IMG/VR virus record: IMGVR_UViG_3300033463_000077
DNA length: 10,394 nucleotides
Origin: a virus
Taxonomy: Duplodnaviria; Heunggongvirae; Uroviricota; Caudoviricetes
Direction: 5' to 3' (one strand)
The notes under the pieces are model-generated. The model was given only the letters and a program-made list of their open reading frames with translations, had not been told where the DNA came from and searched no databases. Positions 1 through 10,394 of this stretch are shown piece by piece (the stretch's first letter is position 1; each line of letters opens with the position of its first letter). A program made the translations under genes and the position numbers.

Positions 1-561
1 AATCCGGCCATCATCGGTTTCATTAATTACCGTCCCGGCCATCTGCTGAAGATGGAAGGACAGAACCTTGAACAGGGTTGGCCGAGTCCGCGGTCTTGGG
101 AACGGGTCAGCAATGTGATCAAAATGTTCAACGGAAATGTTGAACTGCTTCGGAAAGTGGTCTATGGTTTGATCGGAAACGGTGTGGGTCTTGAATTTAT
201 GGAATTCTTTAAGATGAGTTCCGAATTCGATTCGATCCTTGAAGTGATGATCAATGAAAAGGCTGAATTCACTCTCCCGGATAAGAACGACAAAAAATAT
301 GCCGTGGCATCCGCTGTGATCTACCATCTGTGGAATGGCACTGATGAGAAAGATACCGAAGCTAGGATCAATGGATTTTATCGGATCCTTTCCAAGATGC
401 CAAATGACTTCGGTGCCATGATGATCCGTTCGGCCATGCTGGGAAATAAAAAGGTGAAGCCGATGGATGCAATGAAAAAAATCATGACCAACAAAAATTA
501 TGCTACCGCGGCTAAAAAGTTCATGACCGCCGTAAACGGTCAGCCGACTGGTACTCTTTAA
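1..561 (+). CDS. MoxR-like AAA+ ATPase, C-terminal part (5'-truncated by window edge)
   Basis: Frame 1 is open from base 1 (NPAIIGFINYRPGHLLK-MEGQ...), so the track start at 52 is internal. The WPSPRSWERVS motif and helical lid region are typical of MoxR/AAA_5-type ATPases that partner DUF2201 VWA proteins, and such a partner lies 585 bp downstream. Walker motifs are outside the window. Confidence 0.8.
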   Translation, partial: NPAIIGFINYRPGHLLKMEGQNLEQGWPSPRSWERVSNVIKMFNGNVELLRKVVYGLIGNGVGLEFMEFFKMSSEFDSILEVMINEKAEFTLPDKNDKKYAVASAVIYHLWNGTDEKDTEARINGFYRILSKMPNDFGAMMIRSAMLGNKKVKPMDAMKKIMTNKNYATAAKKFMTAVNGQPTGTL

Positions 562-570
562 GAGAGTGTT

Positions 571-649
571 AGAAGCCTCCTGATAGGGTTGTGGTTGGCC
601 CGACAGAGATTTCCATACCTCCTGTGGAAATCTCCCTCAGGAGGCTTCT
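571..649 (+). ncRNA. Putative structured RNA element / complex terminator, copy 1
   Basis: AGAAGCCTCCTGA (571-583) pairs perfectly with TCAGGAGGCTTCT (637-649) and is followed by a T-tract. Internal hairpin GAGATTTCCA (606-615)/TGGAAATCTC (625-634) has loop TACCTCCTG. Weaker hairpin at 590-605. Confidence 0.55.
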
Positions 650-658
650 TTTTTATTA

Positions 659-687
659 GTTTACTTTTTGAGTTAGGATGTTATATT
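659..687 (+). promoter_or_regulatory. Early-type sigma70 promoter (GTTTAC-17-TATATT with extended -10 TG)
   Basis: GTTTACTTTTTGA GTTAGGA TGTTATATT, upstream of ORF 729; exact consensus copy. Confidence 0.85.
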
Positions 688-728
688 AAAATAACGAAAC
701 AAACCGAACAAAATAAAGAGGTGAAGAT

Positions 729-1073
729 ATGAGTACGTCCGCCCTGATCGCTTACAAAAATGAAGATGGAACCTATGATGTGAATGCCATTAACTTTGAT
801 GGTTACATTGAAGGTGTTGGCAAAACTTTGCAAAACTTTTGGAATGATGCTGAAAAGGCAAAAAATATCTGTCACGAAAAAGAGATTCGTTCTCTTGGAG
901 AGGACATGAAAGAAACAGAATTCTATACCGGATATCTCAGTGTTCTGAGAAGGAGACAAGGTCTTTCCTTTGAAAAACTTTGCAATGAAGCTGGAAATTT
1001 CAGCTATACCTATGTTTATGAAGATGATATGTGGCAACAGCTGAGTGACCGTGAAATTATTGAGCCCTACTGA
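729..1073 (+). CDS. Conserved phage hypothetical protein (114 aa; 'MSTxxxI...DG...xxDGY..GVG..L' type)
   Basis: SD GAGGTG at 718-723 and own promoter. N-terminus MSTSALIAYKNEDGTYDVNAINFDGYIEGVGKTL resembles a widespread uncharacterised phage family recalled as ...HxDGYP. Confidence 0.75.
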   Translation: MSTSALIAYKNEDGTYDVNAINFDGYIEGVGKTLQNFWNDAEKAKNICHEKEIRSLGEDMKETEFYTGYLSVLRRRQGLSFEKLCNEAGNFSYTYVYEDDMWQQLSDREIIEPY

Positions 1074-1081
1074 TTTTTCCG

Positions 1082-1110
1082 GTTTACTTTTTGAATTCTG
1101 CTGTTATATT
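1082..1110 (+). promoter_or_regulatory. Early-type promoter
   Basis: GTTTACTTTTTGA ATTCTGC TGTTATATT, exact consensus copy upstream of the VWA gene. Confidence 0.85.
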
Positions 1111-1145
1111 AAAATAACAACCACAACAACATGGAGGATTCACAA

Positions 1146-2588
1146 ATGACCAACGACAAGCTGCAAGAGCTGAAAACCACCGCTCGGAAAATCCTTGCAT
1201 ATAATCGTATGCAACTGCTGAATAAGCATCCCTTTATCGGAAATATTGCAATGAACCTTGATCTGATTCCGATCCGAGATGCTCGTTGTGATTCGGCTAT
1301 GACTGATGGCAATGCAATTTATTTCGATATTGATTTTATGTCCCGTCTGAATTCTGATGAGATCCAGTTTGTTCTCGGACATGAAATTTGGCATGTGGTC
1401 ATGGTCCATTTTCTTCGGAAAGGTGATCGGATCCATGACATCTTTAATATTGCATGTGACATGGAAGTTAATCAGATCCTTGATTCTGATGGATTTTTGG
1501 CTCCGTCTGATGCACTGTTTCCGAATAAAAACCATGCACGGAAATGTGAATATAATTTTGATGACGGTCTGTCCGCTGAAGAATATTATGATCTGATTAT
1601 TGAATGGCATAAAAAACAGGCTGAACAGAACCGCAAAGAAGAGTCTGAAGAGATTGAAAATGAATCCATGGATCCGATTGATCAAAAGGATGAAAATGAT
1701 CAAAATGGGAATGGTGAGACCAAATCTCAGACCAAGGCTCAGACCAAGAAGAAAACCAACCGTCCGAAACGAAATACAAAGAAATGTGAAGGACAGTTTG
1801 ATAAGCACTTTGATCAGTCCGAAAACCAAGAAGAAGCCTTGAAAGAGGCAATGAAAAACGGAGCCGAAGATAAATATGGCACCAAAGAAGAAGATGCTGA
1901 ATTTAAGCCGAGGTCCTACAAAACGGAATCTGAAAAACGAGAAGCTACCGAACAGGTCCGTGAAATGGTCATCAGTTCCGCTCAGACCTACGAAAGACAA
2001 AAAGGTGACCTTCCTGGACATATTAAAAAATATGTGGATAAGCTCCTTGAGTCTAAGCTCCCTTGGAAGGAACTTTTGTCCGCCTTCATCACCGCTGGGT
2101 TCCAAAACAGATCCAATTGGAATGTACCGAATAAAAGATTTGCATATAGCGGTACTTATCTTCCGAGCCATACCGGCGATATGATGAGAATTGCGATCGG
2201 TATTGATACGAGCGGATCCTGTGAATCTGAATGCGGCAAATTTTTATCTGAAGTGAATGCCATTGCAAAGAGCTTTGATCAGTATGAGCTCCATGTTATT
2301 CAGTGTGATGCTGAAGTCAAAGATTATACGATGTTCAATGAATCCAATCCGATGGACCCTGAAAATAAAATTGAGTTCAAAGGATTTGGCGGAACTCGGC
2401 TCCATCCGATCTTTGATTATATTGATCTGAATAATATTGAAGCCGATGCGGTTTTGATCTTCACCGATGGGTACTGTGAAAACTTTGATAAGAATGAGAA
2501 TTTTGACCGTCCGATCATGTGGATGATCACCGGAAAGAACGAATGCAAAAATATTGAAATTGGACAAAAGGTTTATATGGCGGAATAA
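1146..2588 (+). CDS. DUF2201-type protein: N-terminal HExxH metallopeptidase-like domain, charged linker, C-terminal VWA-like domain
   Basis: HEIWH (HExxH) followed by FNIACDMEVN; MIDAS motif IDTSGS, then GFGGT and FTDG. Start placed at ATG 1146 because GGAGGA (1133-1138) is a well-spaced SD; ATG 1131 has none. Confidence 0.9.
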   Translation: MTNDKLQELKTTARKILAYNRMQLLNKHPFIGNIAMNLDLIPIRDARCDSAMTDGNAIYFDIDFMSRLNSDEIQFVLGHEIWHVVMVHFLRKGDRIHDIFNIACDMEVNQILDSDGFLAPSDALFPNKNHARKCEYNFDDGLSAEEYYDLIIEWHKKQAEQNRKEESEEIENESMDPIDQKDENDQNGNGETKSQTKAQTKKKTNRPKRNTKKCEGQFDKHFDQSENQEEALKEAMKNGAEDKYGTKEEDAEFKPRSYKTESEKREATEQVREMVISSAQTYERQKGDLPGHIKKYVDKLLESKLPWKELLSAFITAGFQNRSNWNVPNKRFAYSGTYLPSHTGDMMRIAIGIDTSGSCESECGKFLSEVNAIAKSFDQYELHVIQCDAEVKDYTMFNESNPMDPENKIEFKGFGGTRLHPIFDYIDLNNIEADAVLIFTDGYCENFDKNENFDRPIMWMITGKNECKNIEIGQKVYMAE

Positions 2589-2595
2589 AGATGCT

Positions 2596-2674
2596 AGAAG
2601 CCTCCTGATAGGGTTGTGGTTGGCCCGACAGATATTTCCATACCTCCTGTGGAAAGCTCCCTCAGGAGGCTTCT
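2596..2674 (+). ncRNA. Putative structured RNA element / complex terminator, copy 2
   Basis: Same 13-bp closing stem (14 with T2595-A2675) and same loop TACCTCCTG (2641-2649). The two substitutions (2633, 2656) both weaken the inner hairpin. Confidence 0.55.
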
Positions 2675-2683
2675 ATTTTATCA

Positions 2684-2712
2684 GTTTACTTTTTGAAATT
2701 GAATGTTATATT
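2684..2712 (+). promoter_or_regulatory. Early-type promoter
   Basis: GTTTACTTTTTGA AATTGAA TGTTATATT, exact consensus copy. Confidence 0.85.
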
Positions 2713-2752
2713 AAAATAACGAAAAATAACCGCAAATTAAGGAGATATAAAA

Positions 2753-3001
2753 ATGAAGAATGTGCTTTCCGCTGCATATGATAATGTCTGTGATTTGATC
2801 CTTCGGGATGTCATCGTTGCAAAAGATGAGTTTGAGCTTCTTACCGAAGTAATGAAGAGCGCAAAATTCCTTGCACTCAAACTTCACGGCAAGGTTTCTG
2901 AAGAGGCATATGACAATCTTCTGAAAGACATGGAAGAGATCAAAGCTAAACTTTATAATTTCGAATTGTTCTTCGCTGATTATGAAGATGATGAAGAATA
3001 A
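2753..3001 (+). CDS. Hypothetical protein (82 aa, acidic, helical)
   Basis: Own promoter and strong leader TTAAGGAGATATAAAAATG; no recognisable domain. Confidence 0.75.
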   Translation: MKNVLSAAYDNVCDLILRDVIVAKDEFELLTEVMKSAKFLALKLHGKVSEEAYDNLLKDMEEIKAKLYNFELFFADYEDDEE

Positions 3002-3003
3002 CG

Positions 3004-3032
3004 GTTTACTTTTTGAGTTAAGATGTTATATT
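3004..3032 (+). promoter_or_regulatory. Early-type promoter
   Basis: GTTTACTTTTTGA GTTAAGA TGTTATATT; 34/35 identical to the copy at 659 over the extended motif. Confidence 0.85.
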
Positions 3033-3074
3033 AAAATATCGAATAACCACCAAATAAATTAAGGAGAACGAATT

Positions 3075-3929
3075 ATGGAAATCCGCAAACTGTCCGCCGC
3101 CAATGAAGAGCAGATCAAATCCCAGAGCGAAAGCTTCTTTGATCTCGGCATCACCTCCCAGAAAGCCGCTGTGCTTCTCAACTATCTGTTTCAGTACAAG
3201 TTGGAACACTGTGCATCCAAGCGGGGCTATTACTACGACACCAAGACCGCTGACAGTGTGAACGGCGGTGGGCTGTTGGTCAAAGGAAAGGCACAGATCA
3301 CCATCAATGATATGAATGAAGTCGGAATTTATTTCCGTGATCATTGGGCCATCAATAAATATGTCCGGGTTGCCTCCGGGAAATCTGAGGTCATCAAATC
3401 CATCAAAGATAAGATGGGCAATGAGCTGAAGAAGCTTTGGAAGATGTTCAAAGATGAACGGATCGTCATTAATATCAAAGATCACACTGCACTCTACAAT
3501 GAAGTCGGTAAATACCTTAATCTCTCAGATGATATTGTGACCACCACCGAAAGCGGAAAGAAGGTCATTATTATCAGTCTGAACGAATACCGTGCTCTCT
3601 ATGAATTCCTTAAGAGCCGGGAACCCGCCAAGATCAAGGAACGGTATGGCACCACTGCCTACAATACCATGGTCGGTCAGCGGATCGAGGATCAGTTCCT
3701 TCTCTCCGCGATTGATGTGATCAAAAATGAGATCAGAAACGTGGAACATGAATATTCCGAGACCTGCAAGAGAGCCGAGGAATCCTTTAACGAGAGCTAT
3801 AAACAGCTCCGTGACAAACGTGAACTGGAAAAGGCGGAGGCTGAAAAGGCCAAGCTCTTCAAGATCGAGGAACTTAATCAGCAGATGAAAGACCTTCTGA
3901 ATTCCGCTTTGGGAATGACGGTTCAGTAA
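3075..3929 (+). CDS. Hypothetical protein (284 aa) with C-terminal coiled coil
   Basis: SD AAGGAG at 3061-3066, own promoter, long ORF with strong C/G third-position bias. Glu/Lys/Arg heptad-like tail (EIRNVEHEY...QQMKDLLNS). Confidence 0.85.
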   Translation: MEIRKLSAANEEQIKSQSESFFDLGITSQKAAVLLNYLFQYKLEHCASKRGYYYDTKTADSVNGGGLLVKGKAQITINDMNEVGIYFRDHWAINKYVRVASGKSEVIKSIKDKMGNELKKLWKMFKDERIVINIKDHTALYNEVGKYLNLSDDIVTTTESGKKVIIISLNEYRALYEFLKSREPAKIKERYGTTAYNTMVGQRIEDQFLLSAIDVIKNEIRNVEHEYSETCKRAEESFNESYKQLRDKRELEKAEAEKAKLFKIEELNQQMKDLLNSALGMTVQ

Positions 3930-3930
3930 G

Positions 3931-3995
3931 AGGAGATAAAGGGAGATAGAGGGTGATTGAAACTGCCCTCTATATTACCTTTTAGTTATCTGCCT
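3931..3995 (+). terminator. Long imperfect hairpin after ORF 3075 (terminator or processing stem)
   Basis: Core ATAGAGGGTG (3946-3955)/TGCCCTCTAT (3964-3973), extendable through AAGG/CCTT and AGG-AGATA/TATCT-G-CCT. Confidence 0.55.
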
Positions 3996-4062
3996 TTCAT
4001 CACTAGAAGTGAAGTTGAAATTTTCAAAAATGAATCAAAATTTTTAAAGAAGGGTTTGAATA

Positions 4063-4371
4063 ATGGAAGACAAAGATATTGATTATGAAGTGAAGATCTA
4101 TCAAATCTACGATCAGTTGGCTAAAGAAAATTTATTGAATGCATGGTGTGATTTTTCCAAAAGAGTGATGAAGTATTTGGAAATGGAATGGGAGCCTGAG
4201 AATCCTCCAACCGTTGAAGAAATTCAATCAGTGACCGAAACTTTTGTTGGAAATAATGTTGGAAATATCAATGATATTGGAGCAAAACTTCACATTGATG
4301 ATTTTTCCTTGCTTCTTACTTTCATGATCGTTGGGTTTGATCTTATCATAAATGGAGAAAAGGAAGTTTAA
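4063..4371 (+). CDS. Hypothetical acidic protein (102 aa)
   Basis: ATG with upstream GAAGGG; protein-like composition; same orientation as neighbours; no domain recognised. Confidence 0.7.
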   Translation: MEDKDIDYEVKIYQIYDQLAKENLLNAWCDFSKRVMKYLEMEWEPENPPTVEEIQSVTETFVGNNVGNINDIGAKLHIDDFSLLLTFMIVGFDLIINGEKEV

Positions 4372-4394
4372 ATTTTCATTTGAGATGTTATAAT
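4366..4394 (+). promoter_or_regulatory. Promoter of the tRNA pair (GTTTAA-17-TATAAT, extended -10)
   Basis: GTTTAA ATTTTCATTTGAGA TGT TATAAT, ending 23 nt before tRNA-Thr; overlaps the stop codon of ORF 4063. Confidence 0.8.
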
Positions 4395-4417
4395 AATAAA
4401 TATGAAAAAGAGCTATT

Positions 4418-4505
4418 GCCGGGTTTCCCCTAGTGGACGAAGGGACCGGATTCGTAATCCGGTAGCGAAAGCTCATCGTGAGTTCGAATCTCACACCCGG
4501 CTCCA
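4418..4505 (+). tRNA. trnT: tRNA-Thr(CGU) with long variable arm (class II body), 88 nt, CCA encoded
   Basis: Acceptor GCCGGGT/ACCCGGC, discriminator U, CCA at 4503-4505. D-stem CCCT/AGGG. Anticodon stem CCGGA/TCCGG with loop TT-CGT-AA. V-arm AGC-GAAA-GCT. T-arm GTGAG-TTCGAAT-CTCAC. Confidence 0.9.
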
Positions 4506-4507
4506 AT

Positions 4508-4583
4508 AGGCCATTGGTGTAGCGGCTTTGCACATCAGATTTTGGATCTGAGGGTCCTCGGTCGGCACGAGGATGGCCTGCCA
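4508..4583 (+). tRNA. trnQ: tRNA-Gln(UUG) with non-canonical T-loop, CCA encoded
   Basis: Acceptor AGGCCAT/ATGGCCT, G73, CCA. D-stem GTGT/GCAC. Anticodon stem TCAGA/TCTGA with loop TT-TTG-GA. T-stem CCTCG/CGAGG with loop GTCGGCA. Confidence 0.88.
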
Positions 4584-4586
4584 ATT

Positions 4587-5570
4587 TTATTTTGAAGGTG
4601 ATTTTCTTTTTTTACATTTTTGAAGAAGATCTGGCATATATTTTTCCATCCATCTTCTTATTTTTTGTGGCGGTTTATCAATTAAAATTGCAACTTTTGA
4701 AATCCACCCATTTTTTGTAAAGTCAATATTTGAAGTTTTAACAAGCTCTATTAGTGGCTTATTCATTTCCAGCAATTTCATTTTTTGTTCTTTCAAATAT
4801 TCCAACCAGCTTCTTTTTGCTTTTTTATTTACTTCTTTATATTTGAACACTCTATTTTCTAATTTTTTTAATCCGACATCAATATTAGATATAAATTTCA
4901 AAAATTCATTTATAGTTTTTTGTGTATTTTCAGAATATCCTATTCTAAATACAGTCCAGCCTTTTTCATCTAAGTATGCATCTTTTTTATTATCATGTCC
5001 TTTTCTTGTTTCCCCATGAATAAAATGTTGTTTTCCATCAAGTTCAACCGCAACTTTTATATTCATAAATGCAAAATCAATAAAATATGGAGACTCACAG
5101 TACTCATTTACAATATCATATTTTTTAAAAAGATCAAATTTTTGAATGCATTCATCAAAAAACCATTGTTCTAAATATGACATTTCACCAGCTGCACGGC
5201 GTTCCCAAGCAGTTTTTCCGGTTTTTTGCTTTAAATAATTCACTCTTCTTTGTCTTGCTTCTTCAACCGCTTCTTGATGAGTGGACCAAAAATTTATTTG
5301 TGCATCTGTTAAAAATTTTGATTTACATTCTTTATTTGAACAAGTCAACTTCCAAAACCTTCCATTTGATCTTAATGCGGCGCCTAAAGGTCTTGAAAAA
5401 ACTTCAACTTTATTTTTATTACAATATTGGCAAATAGGAATATCTAAATAATTTAATACATAATCAAATAGTGATAAATCATGTTTTATTTTTATATGAG
5501 TACAAAATCCAATATTTGTTTCAAATGATTGATTGCAAATTTTACAATTTTTTAAAAGTTCATGTATCAT
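4587..5570 (-). CDS. Putative free-standing homing endonuclease: Zn-binding N-terminus, DUF559/Vsr-like PD-(D/E)xK nuclease, C-terminal HTH-like tail
   Basis: C2H2 finger CKIC...HIKIKH; second Cys cluster CQYC...CSNKEC; nuclease motif IDFAF...VELDGKQH...DNKKDAYLDEKGWTVFRI; tail IDFTKNGWISKVA...PQKIRRWM. Start placed at ATG 5570 (SD-like AAGGAAAG upstream); the track start is 5594. Confidence 0.85.
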   Translation of the reverse strand: MIHELLKNCKICNQSFETNIGFCTHIKIKHDLSLFDYVLNYLDIPICQYCNKNKVEVFSRPLGAALRSNGRFWKLTCSNKECKSKFLTDAQINFWSTHQEAVEEARQRRVNYLKQKTGKTAWERRAAGEMSYLEQWFFDECIQKFDLFKKYDIVNEYCESPYFIDFAFMNIKVAVELDGKQHFIHGETRKGHDNKKDAYLDEKGWTVFRIGYSENTQKTINEFLKFISNIDVGLKKLENRVFKYKEVNKKAKRSWLEYLKEQKMKLLEMNKPLIELVKTSNIDFTKNGWISKVAILIDKPPQKIRRWMEKYMPDLLQKCKKRKSPSK

Positions 5571-5616
5571 ATTTTTCTTTCCTTTAGTTAACACATCTTA
5601 TTTGTACCATTACTTT

Positions 5617-5624
5617 TATTTATA
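5617..5624 (-). promoter_or_regulatory. T4-late-type promoter box TATAAATA upstream of the endonuclease
   Basis: + strand TATTTATA is TATAAATA on the - strand, 46 nt upstream of ATG 5570. An 8-mer in AT-rich DNA can arise by chance. Confidence 0.5.
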
Positions 5625-5674
5625 TTTGGTGAAGTGAAGTTTACTTTTTGAATTTTAATGTTATATTAAAATAT
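5625..5674 (+). repeat. 50-bp direct repeat, copy 1 (promoter with extended upstream flank)
   Basis: TTTGGTGAAGTGAAGTTTACTTTTTGAATTTT.. matches 6407..6456 at 46/50; first 32 bp identical. Confidence 0.9.
5639..5667 (+). promoter_or_regulatory. Early-type promoter
   Basis: GTTTACTTTTTGA ATTTTAA TGTTATATT, exact consensus copy. Confidence 0.85.
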
Positions 5675-5704
5675 TCAATTTCAACAATTTAAGGAGAAAA
5701 CAAA

Positions 5705-6067
5705 ATGAATCAGAAAGACATCAACACCATTTCCATTGAAATTGTAGATCCTGTTAAAGCTATCGAAGAAAACTGGACAAAAAATTATTTTGGAGATTCC
5801 TTATATCCTATTGGCCTTTATAATTATCGTCCACGTTTGAAAAAGCTTTCAAAGGATAAAGGAATTGGGAAACTCCTTCTCATCATCAAAGATTTTCCTC
5901 ACAGTAAGAAAAAAGAGATCAGGGAAAGAATGGGTACATCTGCTCAAAGAAATGAAGAGTTCTCTTTTATGATGAAAGGTGAAATGATCAAATATTCCAG
6001 AAAAGAAGGTTATGAAATTACTCCCTTGGGTCTGACCTTACTTCGGAAATTCAATTTAATATCGTAA
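5705..6067 (+). CDS. Putative winged-helix DNA-binding protein, paralog A (120 aa)
   Basis: SD AAGGAG. C-terminal half has a helix-helix-helix-wing pattern ending EMIKYSRKEGYEITPLGL, typical of wHTH wings. About 40-45% identical to 6770..7132 by manual alignment. Confidence 0.75.
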   Translation: MNQKDINTISIEIVDPVKAIEENWTKNYFGDSLYPIGLYNYRPRLKKLSKDKGIGKLLLIIKDFPHSKKKEIRERMGTSAQRNEEFSFMMKGEMIKYSRKEGYEITPLGLTLLRKFNLIS

Positions 6068-6089
6068 GTATTATTCATTCCATTTTATC

Positions 6090-6124
6090 AAGGATGAAGG
6101 AGATGAAAGTTTTCTTCATCCTTT
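6090..6124 (+). terminator. Hairpin after wHTH paralog A (likely intrinsic terminator)
   Basis: AAGGATGAAG (6090-6099)/CTTCATCCTT (6114-6123), extendable to 14 bp with G-U pairs; loop TGAAAG; weak T-tract. Confidence 0.6.
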
Positions 6125-6333
6125 ATAGTTTTCCATAAGAGAAAATAATTCTCCCTCTAGATGCCTCCAAAAGCTTTGACATTTTCTTTAAATAATAGGT
6201 CAGGACTGCCGGCTTGCCGGGCAATATTATTAATAATTTATCCATTATTATTGTGTTACTTTTTTCATTTTTTACCCATTCAAGAAGCACGATAAGGGAG
6301 GAGTCTTCTCCATAGTTTTATATGGAAAAGAAG

Positions 6334-6371
6334 CTTTCATCTTTCTAGATGCTTCTAGAAGTGAATGAAAG
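6334..6371. terminator. Hairpin CTTTCAT..TTCTAGA-TGCT-TCTAGAA..ATGAAAG
   Basis: Two 7-bp stems separated by an internal loop. The A-rich run upstream (6326-6333) would give a U-tract on the - strand. Confidence 0.4.
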
Positions 6372-6406
6372 TATACTAAAATGAAGTTGAATATTTCAAA
6401 TGTGTC

Positions 6407-6456
6407 TTTGGTGAAGTGAAGTTTACTTTTTGAATTTTGGTGTTATATTTTAATAT
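6407..6456 (+). repeat. 50-bp direct repeat, copy 2
   Basis: 46/50 identical to 5625..5674; offset 782 bp. Confidence 0.9.
6421..6449 (+). promoter_or_regulatory. Early-type promoter
   Basis: GTTTACTTTTTGA ATTTTGG TGTTATATT, exact consensus copy. Confidence 0.85.
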
Positions 6457-6480
6457 GAAATAATTATAGTGAGGAAAAGA

Positions 6481-6777
6481 ATGAATATTGATGGATTGGC
6501 TCAAGCAATTGTTTTGACAAAAGAAGAGGAAGATTTTTATACATGGCTTAATGAGTCAAAGATTCAAAATATTCATTTTGGTCAAAGAGTTAACATTAAA
6601 AAAGTTCCTTTCTTTGTCGTTGGAGGAACTATTGATGGTAATATTTATTGTCAAAGTTTTCCTGCACGCACTCATGTTTCAAAGATTAGATATGATGAGT
6701 CAAAACCAAAAGTGATTCTTTATTGGAAAGTTTTTCTTTCCATTCTCAATAAGCAAAAGGAGAATAAAAATGATTGA
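6481..6777 (+). CDS. Hypothetical protein (98 aa)
   Basis: GAGG SD at 6471-6474 favours ATG 6481 over GTG 6469; own promoter; overlaps the next gene by 8 nt. Confidence 0.7.
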   Translation: MNIDGLAQAIVLTKEEEDFYTWLNESKIQNIHFGQRVNIKKVPFFVVGGTIDGNIYCQSFPARTHVSKIRYDESKPKVILYWKVFLSILNKQKENKND

Positions 6778-7132
6778 ACATATCAATGAACTTGCAAATG
6801 AAATTGTTGATCCAATTCAATGTGTTGAAGAAAATCTTACAAGAAATTGTTATAGAGGTTATAGAAATTTTTATTCAAGTCTTTGGTGGAGAAGACCTGG
6901 ATGGACAAGACTTTCAAAGGATAAAGGAATTGGTGGAGTGCTTTTTAGAATTAAAGAACATCCTCATGAAAAGAGAAATTCTATTTCTGATGCATTAAAG
7001 ATTGGCGAAGGAACATGTGGTGAATATGTTCAAACACTATTGAAAGCTGAAATGATTACTTGGACAAGAAAAACTCATTATGAAATTACTCCTCTTGGAC
7101 TTGCAATGCTTAAACTTTTTAACCTTGTTTAA
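6770..7132 (+). CDS. Putative winged-helix DNA-binding protein, paralog B (120 aa)
   Basis: SD AAGGAG inside the upstream gene. Shares EIVDP, LSKDKGIG and YEITPLGL blocks with paralog A. Confidence 0.75.
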   Translation: MIEHINELANEIVDPIQCVEENLTRNCYRGYRNFYSSLWWRRPGWTRLSKDKGIGGVLFRIKEHPHEKRNSISDALKIGEGTCGEYVQTLLKAEMITWTRKTHYEITPLGLAMLKLFNLV

Positions 7133-7134
7133 AT

Positions 7135-7163
7135 GTTTATTTTCTTTTTGAAAATGTTAAATT
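7135..7163 (+). promoter_or_regulatory. Variant early-type promoter (GTTTAT-17-TAAATT)
   Basis: Same geometry, TG extension and downstream AAAATAA as the consensus copies. Confidence 0.65.
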
Positions 7164-7194
7164 AAAATAACCAGAAAAGATTAAGGAGATAAAA

Positions 7195-7530
7195 ATGATT
7201 ACGATTAATGAAGAAGATGAAAGCATTGAAATTTCTGAATGCCTTACTTTTAGCGGAAAGGTTCAGGAAGAATACAATAAAATTCTAGAGGATCAGCAAT
7301 TTGATCTTGAGAATTCTCCTGATATTTTTTCTTCTGATGATATTGAAAACGTTAAAAAGTTTGTAAATCATATTCTTACTCATGAAGATAAATTGAAAAT
7401 TCTTGAGTGCATTATGGATGAATATGACCGTTCTTCAAATTATTTTGACAATCAGTCAATCTTTGATGAAGATTTGATTCAAAAAGGAATTGAAGATTGG
7501 ATAAATGATAATTTTGATTTGAATCTTTAA
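7195..7530 (+). CDS. Hypothetical highly acidic protein (111 aa)
   Basis: SD AAGGAG and own promoter; very Asp/Glu-rich. Confidence 0.75.
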   Translation: MITINEEDESIEISECLTFSGKVQEEYNKILEDQQFDLENSPDIFSSDDIENVKKFVNHILTHEDKLKILECIMDEYDRSSNYFDNQSIFDEDLIQKGIEDWINDNFDLNL

Positions 7531-7546
7531 GAAAGGGATTTTATAA

Positions 7547-8221
7547 ATGAAAATTCGTAACGGGTTTGTTTCCAATAGTTCAAGCAGCTCATTTCTGATT
7601 ATCTATAAATGCTTGAAGGATTTTTGTCAGTTTGATCAGTTTGACTGTTTTGAAACTTTTTACAATGATTTGAAGAATGCCGATCCTTCTATAGCTTTTA
7701 ATCATATTAGAGCTATCATAGATGGAGCATTATATAGACTTTATGATAGGCTTGAAAATTTTATGTTTCTTGATCCTGAAAATGATATATGGGATCTTTT
7801 AGAAATATCAGGAGTTCCTTATGAAGAATTCAGAAATCTTGAAGAAAAGGTTTTGAACTTGGGACATCAGTATCAAGAAAATGTATTCAAAAAATATCCT
7901 GATATCCGTGATATTTGTTTTAATGCTGAAGGAAATTATTATTGTTTTATCGATAAAGAACAGATGAATTTTATTCAGGAATGTGGAAAGAAATATAGTG
8001 ATGCTTATTATGATGAAGCATTTCAGAAAGAACTTGATGAAGGCATTGAAAATTTGGCAATGAAAATTCAAGATGCTTTGACAGAGAAGGGATACCAAAT
8101 CAGAAGTATCAGATATGAAGATCATGATGATAAAGGATACATGATGGAACAAGGATTTATGCCTTTCTTAAAGAGAAACCCCGAAAGAAAATATGAAATT
8201 CTTATCACAAATGAGCACTGA
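7547..8221 (+). CDS. Uncharacterised 'MKIRxGFVSNSSSSSF' family protein (224 aa)
   Basis: N-terminus MKIRNGFVSNSSSSSFLI is a motif I recognise from many uncharacterised phage and bacterial proteins; upstream AAGGG. Confidence 0.8.
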   Translation: MKIRNGFVSNSSSSSFLIIYKCLKDFCQFDQFDCFETFYNDLKNADPSIAFNHIRAIIDGALYRLYDRLENFMFLDPENDIWDLLEISGVPYEEFRNLEEKVLNLGHQYQENVFKKYPDIRDICFNAEGNYYCFIDKEQMNFIQECGKKYSDAYYDEAFQKELDEGIENLAMKIQDALTEKGYQIRSIRYEDHDDKGYMMEQGFMPFLKRNPERKYEILITNEH

Positions 8222-8624
8222 AATGAAAAAGAAAATAAATTATGAATGGTATTTTGAAATTTGGAATAAATTTTTCTTAAGTAAAGGATTAGAAAAAATT
8301 TATTCTGAGAATCTTCAAGATGATTTTTATTCTTCTTTTAAAGGAGAAATTAATAGATCTTCTGAATTAAAAATTGATCTTTATGCAGGTGATTATAGAA
8401 CAGATACAAATACTCACGGATGCATTGGTGTTGATTTTGTAAAAAATTATAATAAGCTTTCTCAAATGCCAATTTATGTAGATCTTGACATTGATGAAGA
8501 AAAACTTTGGGAAGCAATTCTTTTATTGGTTAAACATGAAGAAGAATTTCCTGAAAAATATTCATCAATTAAATTGTCGGAAAAAGGAAGATGGAAACTT
8601 ATTAAATGGGAAGATGAAGAATGA
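8193..8624 (+). CDS. Hypothetical protein (143 aa; true start may be ATG 8211 or 8223)
   Basis: Long ORF in operon orientation; ATG 8223 lies 1 nt after the upstream stop; no domain recognised. Confidence 0.7.
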   Translation: MKFLSQMSTEMKKKINYEWYFEIWNKFFLSKGLEKIYSENLQDDFYSSFKGEINRSSELKIDLYAGDYRTDTNTHGCIGVDFVKNYNKLSQMPIYVDLDIDEEKLWEAILLLVKHEEEFPEKYSSIKLSEKGRWKLIKWEDEE

Positions 8625-8746
8625 GAACTTTTCTTTTCTTAATATTTCTTTTTGTCATTCTTCTTAGTGGATGGTTTATTTGGTTTTTGATTGCAGATTC
8701 GATCAAATATTACCAAAAGAAGAAAAAGAAAAGAATGAAAAGATAA
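8621..8746 (+). CDS. Small single-pass membrane protein (41 aa), absent from ORF track
   Basis: MRTFLFLIFLFVILLSGWFIWFLIADSIKYYQKKKKKRMKR*. ATGA overlap with the upstream stop; fills the gap up to the next promoter, with the stop 2 nt before it. Confidence 0.75.
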   Translation: MRTFLFLIFLFVILLSGWFIWFLIADSIKYYQKKKKKRMKR

Positions 8747-8748
8747 AA

Positions 8749-8778
8749 GTTTACCTATGAAGCGAATTCTGTTATATT
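8749..8778 (+). promoter_or_regulatory. Variant early-type promoter (GTTTAC-18-TATATT)
   Basis: GTTTAC CTATGAAGCGAATTC TGT TATATT upstream of the radical SAM gene; spacer one nt longer than consensus. Confidence 0.6.
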
Positions 8779-8825
8779 TTAATAAGGATTAGCTTTTTAT
8801 ATATTTAAAAACCAAGGAGGAAAAG

Positions 8826-9998
8826 ATGAACCTTATCGAAGGTATGATCAAATTAATTATTGCAAAATCTGTTTATACTTTTAAACCAACTAATGGAAAT
8901 TATAAAGTATATATTGACAAAAATGGCAATCGGTATATGGTTGCAAATGATGATTCCTTTCATCTTCTCTTTTTGAAGCAAAATGGTTGGACTGCTAAGT
9001 GGGGAAAAACTTTTGATGATGATCCTCTGTATTGTCCGTTCGGGAATGAAATAGCGGATATAGAAATTACAAAAATGTGTCGCGGCATTCGTAATAAAGA
9101 TGGAAAAAGAACTCCTTGTCCTTGGTGTTATAAATCCAATTCTCCTAACGGGACCTTCATGAATTTTGAAACTTTTAAAAATATTTTTAATACTTTGAAT
9201 GCTCAAAGTACAATGACCCAAATTGCATTTGGAGTTGATGCTGAAGCATCGGATGTTTTAAATCCTGATATTTGGAAAATCATGGATTATACAATCCAGA
9301 ATGGAGTGACTCCAAATATTACTGTTGCTGACATTGATGAACATACTGCAAAGAATCTTGTTAAGAGATGTGGAGCAATTGCGGTTTCCATGTATGGGTT
9401 AATTGATAAAAATCGCTGTTATGATACCGTAAAACTTCTCGTTGATGAAGCCAGAAAAATTGAAAAGAAAATGAAAATCAATATTCATTGTCTTCTTTCT
9501 AAAGAAACATACGAATCAGTTTTTGAATTGATGAATGATCGCATTACCGATAAAAGATTGGAAAGCATGGGTGCTATTGTTTTCCTTTCACTTAAGCAAA
9601 AAGGTAGAGGAGAATATTTCAATCGAATTACTGATGAAGAATTCAAAAAAATTATTGATATTAGTTTTGGTAATAAAATTAGTATTGGATTTGATTCTTG
9701 TTCAGCTCCAAAATTTTTGAAATCAATTGAAGATCGTCCTGATAAAAATGAATTGAAAAATTATGTTGAAAGTTGCGAATCAACACTTTACAGCCTTTAC
9801 ATTGATGCAAATGGAATGTTTTATCCATGCTCTTTTATGGAAAAAGAAGGAGATTGGAAAACTGGAATTGATATGACAAAGGTTGAAGATTTCATTAAAG
9901 AAGTTTGGAATGAAGAACGAGTTGTAAAATGGAGAAATGCTTCCATTAAATGTCTTGAATGTAATGGTTGCAATATGTGTAAATTTTACAATGTTTAA
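8826..9998 (+). CDS. Radical SAM protein with SPASM/twitch-like C-terminus (390 aa)
   Basis: SD AGGAGG. EITKMC-X12-CPWCYKSN cluster motif, following MNFETFKNIF helix, QIAFG strand; C-terminal C-x15-C (..IDANGMFYPC) plus CLECNGCNMC. Confidence 0.85.
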   Translation: MNLIEGMIKLIIAKSVYTFKPTNGNYKVYIDKNGNRYMVANDDSFHLLFLKQNGWTAKWGKTFDDDPLYCPFGNEIADIEITKMCRGIRNKDGKRTPCPWCYKSNSPNGTFMNFETFKNIFNTLNAQSTMTQIAFGVDAEASDVLNPDIWKIMDYTIQNGVTPNITVADIDEHTAKNLVKRCGAIAVSMYGLIDKNRCYDTVKLLVDEARKIEKKMKINIHCLLSKETYESVFELMNDRITDKRLESMGAIVFLSLKQKGRGEYFNRITDEEFKKIIDISFGNKISIGFDSCSAPKFLKSIEDRPDKNELKNYVESCESTLYSLYIDANGMFYPCSFMEKEGDWKTGIDMTKVEDFIKEVWNEERVVKWRNASIKCLECNGCNMCKFYNV

Positions 9999-10016
9999 TT
10001 TAAAAGGAGAAATAAA

Positions 10017-10313
10017 ATGAAATTTTATATCACTAAGAACAAATATTTTAATAATGGAAATAAAGTTAGTAAAGAATATTTTTCTAATGTAGATGTTAAT
10101 GAAAACTTTGCATATAATTTAATAAATTTGATCAATACATCAATTCTTTCAAAAAATCTTTGGGAAGAACTTGGAATCATTTCAACATTTACTGATCATG
10201 TTACAATCTCCATTGATGACATTGAAATTAAAATTAAGTCAGAAGATCTTTCTTTTAATTTCGAAAAATATGATGTAGAACTTTATAATGAATTTGCAAA
10301 GATAAGATATTAA
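10017..10313 (+). CDS. Hypothetical protein (98 aa)
   Basis: SD AAGGAG at 10003-10008; operon orientation. Confidence 0.7.
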   Translation: MKFYITKNKYFNNGNKVSKEYFSNVDVNENFAYNLINLINTSILSKNLWEELGIISTFTDHVTISIDDIEIKIKSEDLSFNFEKYDVELYNEFAKIRY

Positions 10314-10332
10314 GATTAAGGATGGAAAGAAA

Positions 10333-10394
10333 ATGCTGAAAGAAAATAAATTTGATTATACTTATTATTTAATGTGGCTTGCTTCAATAGCAGT
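10333..10394 (+). CDS. Start of a further hypothetical protein (3'-truncated)
   Basis: ATG 10333 with upstream AAGGATGGA; frame MLKENKFDYTYYLMWLASIA.. is open to the window end. Confidence 0.45.
   Translation, partial: MLKENKFDYTYYLMWLASIA

Follow-up and report, generated by a model that had tools for sequence, protein, structure and literature searches.

Location and gene context of the element

The window analysed here, a 10,394-nt stretch of DNA, comes from an uncultured phage whose relatives occur in rumen and gut metagenome assemblies. On its plus strand it carries two copies of a 79-nt element which folding predicts to be a three-way junction, at 571–649 (copy 1) and 2596–2674 (copy 2). 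Copy 1 lies behind the gene for a MoxR-type AAA ATPase and copy 2 behind the gene for a DUF2201 metallopeptidase/VWA protein, 7–9 nt past the TAA stop codon and upstream of the next promoter, which at each copy begins 10 nt past the stem, after a U-rich tract. Since a stop codon stands just upstream and a U-tract and a promoter follow, the element sits between the end of one transcription unit and the start of the next. The features of the two sites are:

559–561, plus strand: TAA stop codon of the MoxR-type AAA ATPase gene, 9 nt ahead of the copy 1 stem (open reading frames; Pfam AAA/AAA_5 matches for the same gene in L001)
571–583, plus strand: 5' arm of the 13-bp closing helix of copy 1, containing CCUCCUG (fold; three helix pairs changed on both sides in relatives)
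586–601, plus strand: small hairpin 1 of copy 1, a GGG/CCC core with G·U pairs, its GUGGUUGG region conserved (fold and alignment; a G-C pair becomes A-U in L027)
606–634, plus strand: hairpin 2 of copy 1, 12 pairs, bearing the apical loop (fold; the lower stem GAGA/UCUC becomes GUAG/CUAC in L027)
618–622, plus strand: CCUCC apical loop of copy 1, anti-Shine-Dalgarno (anti-SD)-like (11 of 11 aligned sequences; unpaired probability 0.83–1.0)
637–649, plus strand: 3' arm of the closing helix of copy 1, containing CAGGAGG (fold)
650–658, plus strand: U-tract TTTTTTATT right behind the copy 1 stem (sequence)
659–694, plus strand: early promoter behind copy 1, TTTACT, a 16-nt spacer and TGtTATATT (repeat family, promoter scan)
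2586–2588, plus strand: TAA stop codon of the DUF2201 metallopeptidase/VWA gene, 7 nt ahead of the copy 2 stem (open reading frames, domain search)
2596–2674, plus strand: whole element of copy 2, with arms 2596–2608/2662–2674, hairpin 1 at 2611–2626, hairpin 2 at 2631–2659 and the CCUCC loop at 2643–2647 (fold, repeat search)
2675–2683, plus strand: U-rich tail ATTTTATCA of copy 2 (sequence)
2684–2719, plus strand: early promoter behind copy 2 (repeat family, promoter scan)

The full repeat unit, 567–699 versus 2592–2724, includes the stem-loop, the U-tract and the promoter. The early promoter itself is of the sigma70 type (TTTACT-N16-TGtTATATT) and is present in 8–9 copies within the 10.4 kb of the window, where the stem-loop is present in 2.

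Several other features of the window were noticed. A small hairpin at 555–569, ACTCT-TTAAG-AGAGT, encloses the ATPase stop codon directly upstream of copy 1; it is kept at the copy-1 sites of relatives and lies outside the duplicated unit. G+C content shifts from 39–44% in positions 1–4000, which hold the ATPase/VWA block, to 28–33% in 4001–10394, and so sharp a shift suggests modules differing in origin or expression class. An unusually long tRNA-Thr(CGU) gene of 88 nt (4418–4505) and a tRNA-Gln(UUG) gene (4508–4583) lie tail-to-tail with the sole long minus-strand gene, which encodes a DUF559/Vsr-like endonuclease (4587–5594). Two paralogous 120-aa genes, at 5705–6067 and 6770–7132, have 72% identical DNA segments, and each stands behind its own early-promoter copy or neighbouring gene; the one paralogue tested had no Pfam match.

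Structure of the two copies

Sequence and folding confirm the two main helices that the initial annotation had described in copy 1. Its closing stem, 571–583 with 637–649, is perfect over 13 bp, eight of them G-C pairs, and the hairpin reported as 10 bp at 606–615/625–634 is extended by U616·G624 and A617-U623, which brings the pairing to 12 (606–617 with 623–634, ten of the pairs Watson-Crick). The weaker small hairpin also exists, but its position had to be corrected: it was placed at 590–605, whereas in the minimum-energy fold it occupies 586–601 as GGG(UUG)/(UUG)CCC, with three G·U pairs. The motif ACCTCCT is found where it had been reported, at 617–623 and 2642–2648.

Copy 1 has a folding energy of −43.5 kcal/mol (z −6.9; equalled by 0 of 200 shuffles) and copy 2 of −36.6 kcal/mol (z −3.6), while the reverse strand folds weaker in both cases (−38.8 and −33.2 kcal/mol, respectively). 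With model R1, copy 2 scores 117 bits. As had been stated before, 77 of 79 nt are kept between the copies, and neither of the two substitutions (G608 to T and T631 to G) is compensatory. Since T is the majority state at position 608 among relatives, G608 of copy 1 is a derived change, one that perfects the stem.

Searches for known families and rejected candidates

The suspicion that the element belongs to no described family is borne out by Rfam (4227 families, E ≤ 1), which gives no match over either copy. Hammerhead and other ribozymes, tRNA, SSU rRNA and known anti-SD sRNA families were rejected on this ground, and the earlier proposal of 16S-tail mimicry is left unsupported, as Rfam reports no SSU rRNA match at E ≤ 1. 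Rfam applied to L021, L022 and L027 returned nothing relevant either. We also rejected a tRNA relic, as ARAGORN finds only the two real tRNAs in the window; a weak match of model R1 in L016 (15.9 bits) is an ordinary tRNA. The reading frame is open in both copies of the element; since it is in phase with the upstream gene in copy 1 only, and since 1-nt indels occur in L005, L016 and L009, the element is not coding.

A distant blastn search with positions 1–4000 of the window found no match among GenBank phages, and three DNA patterns and one protein query found none in IMG/VR. A genome pattern scan gave chance matches except for a Desulfococcaceae MAG (L021 4383–4478; L022 7337–7430; L028–L039), which carries palindromic intergenic repeats of ∼80 nt with 58 BLAST matches. 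Their consensus starts CCCCTCCTGAGAGGGG and ends CTCTCAGGAGGGG, and the outer motif together with a CCCGxCTGA piece resembles the phage element; two loci have the core in the opposite orientation to the flanks, and the repeats have a REP/MITE-like look. They were rejected as homologues, being plain hairpins with the consensus GAGAGGGG instead of GATAGGG, and their likeness to the phage element is probably convergence rather than homology.

Distribution among relatives

Relatives were gathered from contigs encoding DUF2201 homologues and from one metagenome pattern scan, which yielded four true relatives (L010, L011/L016 and L014) and three chance matches. At the ends of the ATPase and DUF2201 genes they carry the following (percentages are DUF2201 identity):

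L002/L003, 84%: both copies present
L005, 81%: both copies present
L010, short contig: the post-DUF2201 copy alone visible
L014, short contig: the post-ATPase copy alone visible
L009, 64%: post-ATPase copy only
L016/L011: post-ATPase copy only in L016; in L011, 2.1 kb around the post-ATPase copy examined
L027/L026/L040, 63–65%: a diverged version behind DUF2201
L041, 69%: a simplified version behind DUF2201
L007, 64%: plain hairpin and T-run terminator after the ATPase gene; DUF2201 end bare
L008, 61%: plain hairpin and T-run terminator after the ATPase gene; DUF2201 end bare
L025, 63%: plain hairpin and T-run terminator upstream of DUF2201; DUF2201 end without the element

Model R1 finds the stem-loop in one or two copies, at fixed gene ends, per 7–13 kb locus searched, and in these loci we did not find the many dispersed copies expected of REP/MITE-like palindromic repeats. 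Homologues keep the loop and the loop-bearing hairpin in five of six lineages. The exception is L041, where a simplified homologue in a 260-nt intergenic region (1830–1924) forms a perfect ∼20-bp hairpin, in which GATAGAGAG/CTCTCTATC lengthens the outer stem. Hairpin 1 and the U-tract are missing, CUUCU replaces CCUCC, and the interior is A+U-rich and unstructured. As L041 has lost hairpin 1 and CCUCC and has kept the outer stem, the interior is dispensable in at least one lineage. Taken with the plain terminators of the sister phages, the comparison of loci indicates that this is a predicted terminator site across the wider group, of which the branched element is a lineage-specific version.

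Some relatives have the second copy and others lack it; because L009 and L016 have the post-ATPase copy only, it represents a recent duplication of the cassette. Both L005 copies carry the same 1-nt deletion, and the copy-2 sites of the window and L010 share a GGAAAG variant with the copy-1 site of L014. The 3.6-kb contig L026 starts in the 3' half of the element (1–44) and ends in its 5' half (3574–3620), and L040 is also cut within the element (3567–3602). The ends of L026 mean either that the assembly broke off where the cassette is repeated or that the segment is circular or in tandem, recalling PeSL mini-circles.

Such observations could be taken to mean that the element is a recombination cassette only, that is, a selfish or structural DNA repeat (PeSL, REP or MITE-like) whose likeness is kept by gene conversion and by exchange between co-infecting phages, and whose interior has no RNA function beyond not disturbing the hairpin. 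The L005 deletion and the common polymorphisms show copies evolving in concert, the promoter was duplicated together with the stem-loop, L026 has half an element at either end, the interior has decayed in L041, and the Desulfococcaceae MAG provides palindromic repeats with a similar outer motif. We nevertheless consider this account unlikely: with 1–2 copies at fixed gene ends there is no hint of mobility, the loop is invariant while the stems vary, and the compensatory changes of L027 in both inner hairpins, together with one-sided G·U changes (see below), argue for selection on RNA pairing.

Conservation and covariation

The element is the conservation peak of its region, with 80–97.5% identity versus 72–86% for the adjacent coding sequence (up to 93% for L002 coding sequence):

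L005: element 97.5%, adjacent coding 80–86%
L002: element 96%, adjacent coding 86–93%
L016: element 89%, adjacent coding 76%; the former is biased upward, since L016 was retrieved with a pattern that fixes 21 nt
L009: element 85%, adjacent coding 72%; found via protein, unbiased
L027: element 80%, adjacent coding 72%; found via protein, unbiased

It should be noted that high identity between phages could partly reflect recombination of the cassette, not purifying selection. Seven pairs are changed on both sides, compared with 1.3 ± 1.1 in column shuffles (0 of 500 reaching this number) and 0–2 in slid controls; the alignment behind this count had been fitted to the model, and six of the seven pairs owe their double change to a single sequence, L027. 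In L027 the compensatory pairs are spread over the outer helix (two), hairpin 1 (one) and the lower stem of hairpin 2 (three), and a further pair of the outer helix is changed on both sides in L009. No covariation was seen among the closely related copies by themselves; it appeared on adding L027. Every homologue folded singly gives the same junction.

Many pairs are G·U or change to G·U, and as these would be A·C mismatches on the opposite strand, the plus-strand RNA is the selected molecule. The junction and loop pieces UA, GACA, GUGGUUGG and CCUCC are conserved among the aligned homologues; variable columns make up 5 of 18 unpaired and 29 of 62 paired positions, a trend only (Fisher exact test, P = 0.18). 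Judged from these alignments and folds, the structure is a genuine, selected RNA on the gene strand, and the selection acting on it exceeds what termination needs. The view of the initial annotation that this is more than a plain terminator thus holds, given the conservation peak, the compensatory changes in all three helices and the invariant loop. What we have is a real, conserved and new RNA motif of narrow distribution, whose main job is probably ordinary and whose one additional feature is intriguing and open to testing.

The CCUCC loop

The apical loop exposes CCUCC, the anti-SD pentamer of the ribosome. The pentamer is unchanged in all 11 aligned sequences, which represent five lineages, even though 15 of 24 stem columns of the hairpin that bears it vary; it is lost in L041. 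In the 11 sequences it is predicted to be unpaired with a probability of 0.83–1.0. The loop-closing pairs are not kept, which lets loop size vary between 5 and 11 nt. The CCUCCU/AGGAGG of the outer helix has become CCUCUGG/CCAGAGG in L027, where the loop still reads CCUCCU; as one changed and the other did not, the loop motif is conserved for its own sake.

The same substitution bears on a possible termination switch. In window-type sequences, with two CCUCCUG and one CAGGAGG, the loop CCUCCUG and the 5'-arm CCUCCUG might compete for the 3'-arm CAGGAGG, and two exclusive folds would then tune termination. The two compensatory changes in the outer helix of L027, however, bring the alternative pairing down to ∼4 bp, the Y-shaped fold dominates the ensemble, and in every homologue the loop has an unpaired probability of at least 0.83, which makes such a switch most improbable.

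Because changes accumulate in the stems and spare the apical CCUCC(U) loop and the GUGGUUGG region, the mRNA 3' end, or a fragment trimmed from it, probably serves as a putative binding site in addition; the role we would predict first for the loop is to pair with ribosome-binding sites of the GGAGG type. In its fullest form, which we regard as possible but doubtful, this idea supposes a stable ∼80–90 nt RNA derived from the 3' UTR, whose CCUCC would pair in trans with host or phage Shine-Dalgarno (SD) sequences or titrate factors recognising the 16S tail and so alter translation. The motif is invariant and unpaired in five lineages over a covarying stem, and the 11-nt loop of L027 reads CUCCUUA and complements 7 nt of UAAGGAG, the usual ribosome-binding site of this phage. 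There are also precedents in RsaE and RNAIII (PMC2790875), the cuckoo RNAs (PMC4615179) and terminator loops (PMC11979758).

On the other side, no plus-strand promoter was found in the ∼170 nt ahead of either copy, nor any other sign of an independent small transcript, and Rfam offers no SSU rRNA or known sRNA family match. The exposed motif is single and held in most copies in a tight 5-nt loop, and its complementarity to ribosome-binding sites of the window never exceeds the 5-nt SD core, with no target-specific extension. Loop pairing specific to the ribosome-binding sites of the two element-bearing genes was not found; the ATPase gene uses the common UAAGGAGA. Other CCUCC-loop hairpins were sought in related loci, none convincing, and the element, with the motif lost in L041, is confined to one phage sub-lineage. 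We therefore put it forward only tentatively, as an idea with the odds against it, that the three-way junction might be a stable 3' fragment which outlives its mRNA and whose loop would pair GGAGG-type sites or act as a decoy for a factor recognising the 16S 3' tail, biasing translation early in infection. If true, this would be a terminator-resident anti-SD riboregulator embedded in a 3' UTR, a type not described for phages.

In the contig of P0028, a 54% DUF2201 relative, a gene for a homologue of ribosomal protein S21 (PF01165) precedes the ATPase/VWA pair by a few genes. S21 sits close to the anti-SD region of 16S rRNA, and its gene near this pair could matter if the CCUCC loop has a ribosome-related role.

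As an alternative, the element may be a site of processing or protein binding. RNase III is known to cut double-stranded RNA at intergenic sites of T7, and with the closing helix stacked coaxially on hairpin 2 the element would offer it ∼25 bp of dsRNA; or else the loops could dock a phage or host RNA-binding protein which sets the stability or dosage of the ATPase and VWA messages. Conservation of the loops and junctions (UA, GACA, GUGGUUGG, CCUCC) and the presence of the same element on two functionally paired genes would fit such a processing or protein-binding site, and the 20-bp perfect helix of L041, without a U-tract, suits a dsRNA role over a terminator. No candidate protein was identified, however, and in L009 and L016 it is the ATPase gene alone that bears the element, so that we find this quite improbable.

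A putative terminator–promoter cassette

The position past the stop codon, the U-tract, the immediate promoter and the plain terminators of sister phages point to termination as the primary role. The initial annotation had set a terminator role aside, and here we disagree with it: the context at both copies, together with the plain terminators of the more distant sister phages L007 and L008, argues for termination. Behind the G+C-rich stem there is a U-tract, TTTTTT in copy 1 and ATTTT in copy 2, where it is interrupted (A, then UUUU); U-rich tails stand behind all homologues of the three-way-junction type, and the simplified L041 copy has none. Unlike the usual terminator with a loop of about 3–8 nt, the closing stem encloses a 53-nt branched interior, and a terminator scanner run on the window did not call the full element.

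We infer from these features how the cassette might work. The 13-bp G+C-rich closing helix and the U-tract would bring host RNA polymerase to a halt where the MoxR-ATPase message ends. By compacting the 53-nt insert, the two inner hairpins would let the arms meet, and the finished mRNA would then carry a very stable 3' cap. The sigma70-type early promoter 10 nt downstream would launch the next unit, which would make terminator and promoter one cassette of ∼130 nt. In the sub-lineage formed by the window, L002/L003, L005 and L010, a duplicate of the whole cassette appears to have been placed behind the DUF2201/VWA gene, with recombination presumably keeping the two copies alike.

Our preferred reading, to which we give moderate confidence, is that the element would be a branched intrinsic terminator in a PeSL-like cassette, with RNA structure and loops selected beyond the needs of termination. 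A branched interior of 53 nt is atypical for intrinsic terminators, the stem-loop occurs once or twice per ∼10–13 kb where PeSLs are many, and L041 keeps the outer stem without hairpin 1, CCUCC or U-tract; these points speak against this reading. Terminators are usually seen as interchangeable hairpins, and here is one conserved above the genes it closes, with covarying inner helices. Should the loop prove functional, phage mRNA terminators could have a second use as regulatory RNAs, and the element would offer a small and easily mutated test case. If it is a terminator only, it still illustrates clearly how a terminator can be branched and how a PeSL-like cassette can be duplicated outside the classic T4 phages, which helps the annotation of uncultured rumen phages.

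Comparison with known systems

The PeSL cassettes of T4-type phages fuse a terminator stem-loop to a sigma70-like early promoter and mediate modular shuffling (PMC2839356, PMC4122927). The arrangement described here resembles them in being a repeated unit of ∼100–130 nt in which a terminator or attenuator stem-loop, here a predicted one, is followed by a strong sigma70-like early promoter. PeSLs also flank small genes, and their copies bear signs of recombination, to which the polymorphisms and the deletion shared between copies here may be a parallel. Promoter and stem-loop are joined in one conserved unit here too (133 nt, 93% identity between the two). PeSL stem-loops, however, are simple, often polyG/polyC and present in many copies, which flank small accessory genes in plastic regions. 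The stem-loop described here is a three-way junction of 79 nt whose inner hairpins covary and whose loop is invariant; it was found at one or two fixed gene ends, and only the promoter recurs more often, 8–9 times in the window. The phages that carry PeSLs are T4-like myoviruses, and positions 1–4000 of the window gave no DNA match among GenBank phages.

With intrinsic terminators the element shares a G+C-rich helix, a U-tract and a place just past a stop codon, and sister phages have plain terminators at the same site. It differs from them in that, instead of a 3–8 nt loop, there is a two-hairpin interior of 53 nt, conserved more than termination should require.

For S. aureus RNAIII and RsaE, action of C-rich (UCCC) loops on SD sequences is established (PMC2790875, PMC2837412), while for the cuckoo/alpha-r14 RNAs with their CCUCCUCCC loops it is proposed (PMC4615179). 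Common to them and to the phage element is a pyrimidine-rich, anti-SD-like motif unpaired in a hairpin loop and conserved over compensatory stems. In contrast to these independent small transcripts, the phage loop is embedded in an mRNA terminator for which no promoter of its own was found. Most of them also carry two or more motifs (2–4 hairpins in cuckoo RNAs, whose loops are 9–27 nt; several copies in RsaE, RsaG and RsaC), whereas the phage element has a single motif in a loop of 5–11 nt, matches no Rfam family, and its target binding is only predicted. That a terminator loop can carry regulatory information is known from the E. coli sRNAs SdsR, RseX and ArrS (PMC11979758). Their terminators are Hfq-dependent, simple hairpins acting on one 5' UTR target, probably without base-pairing, and bear no relation in sequence or structure to the phage element.
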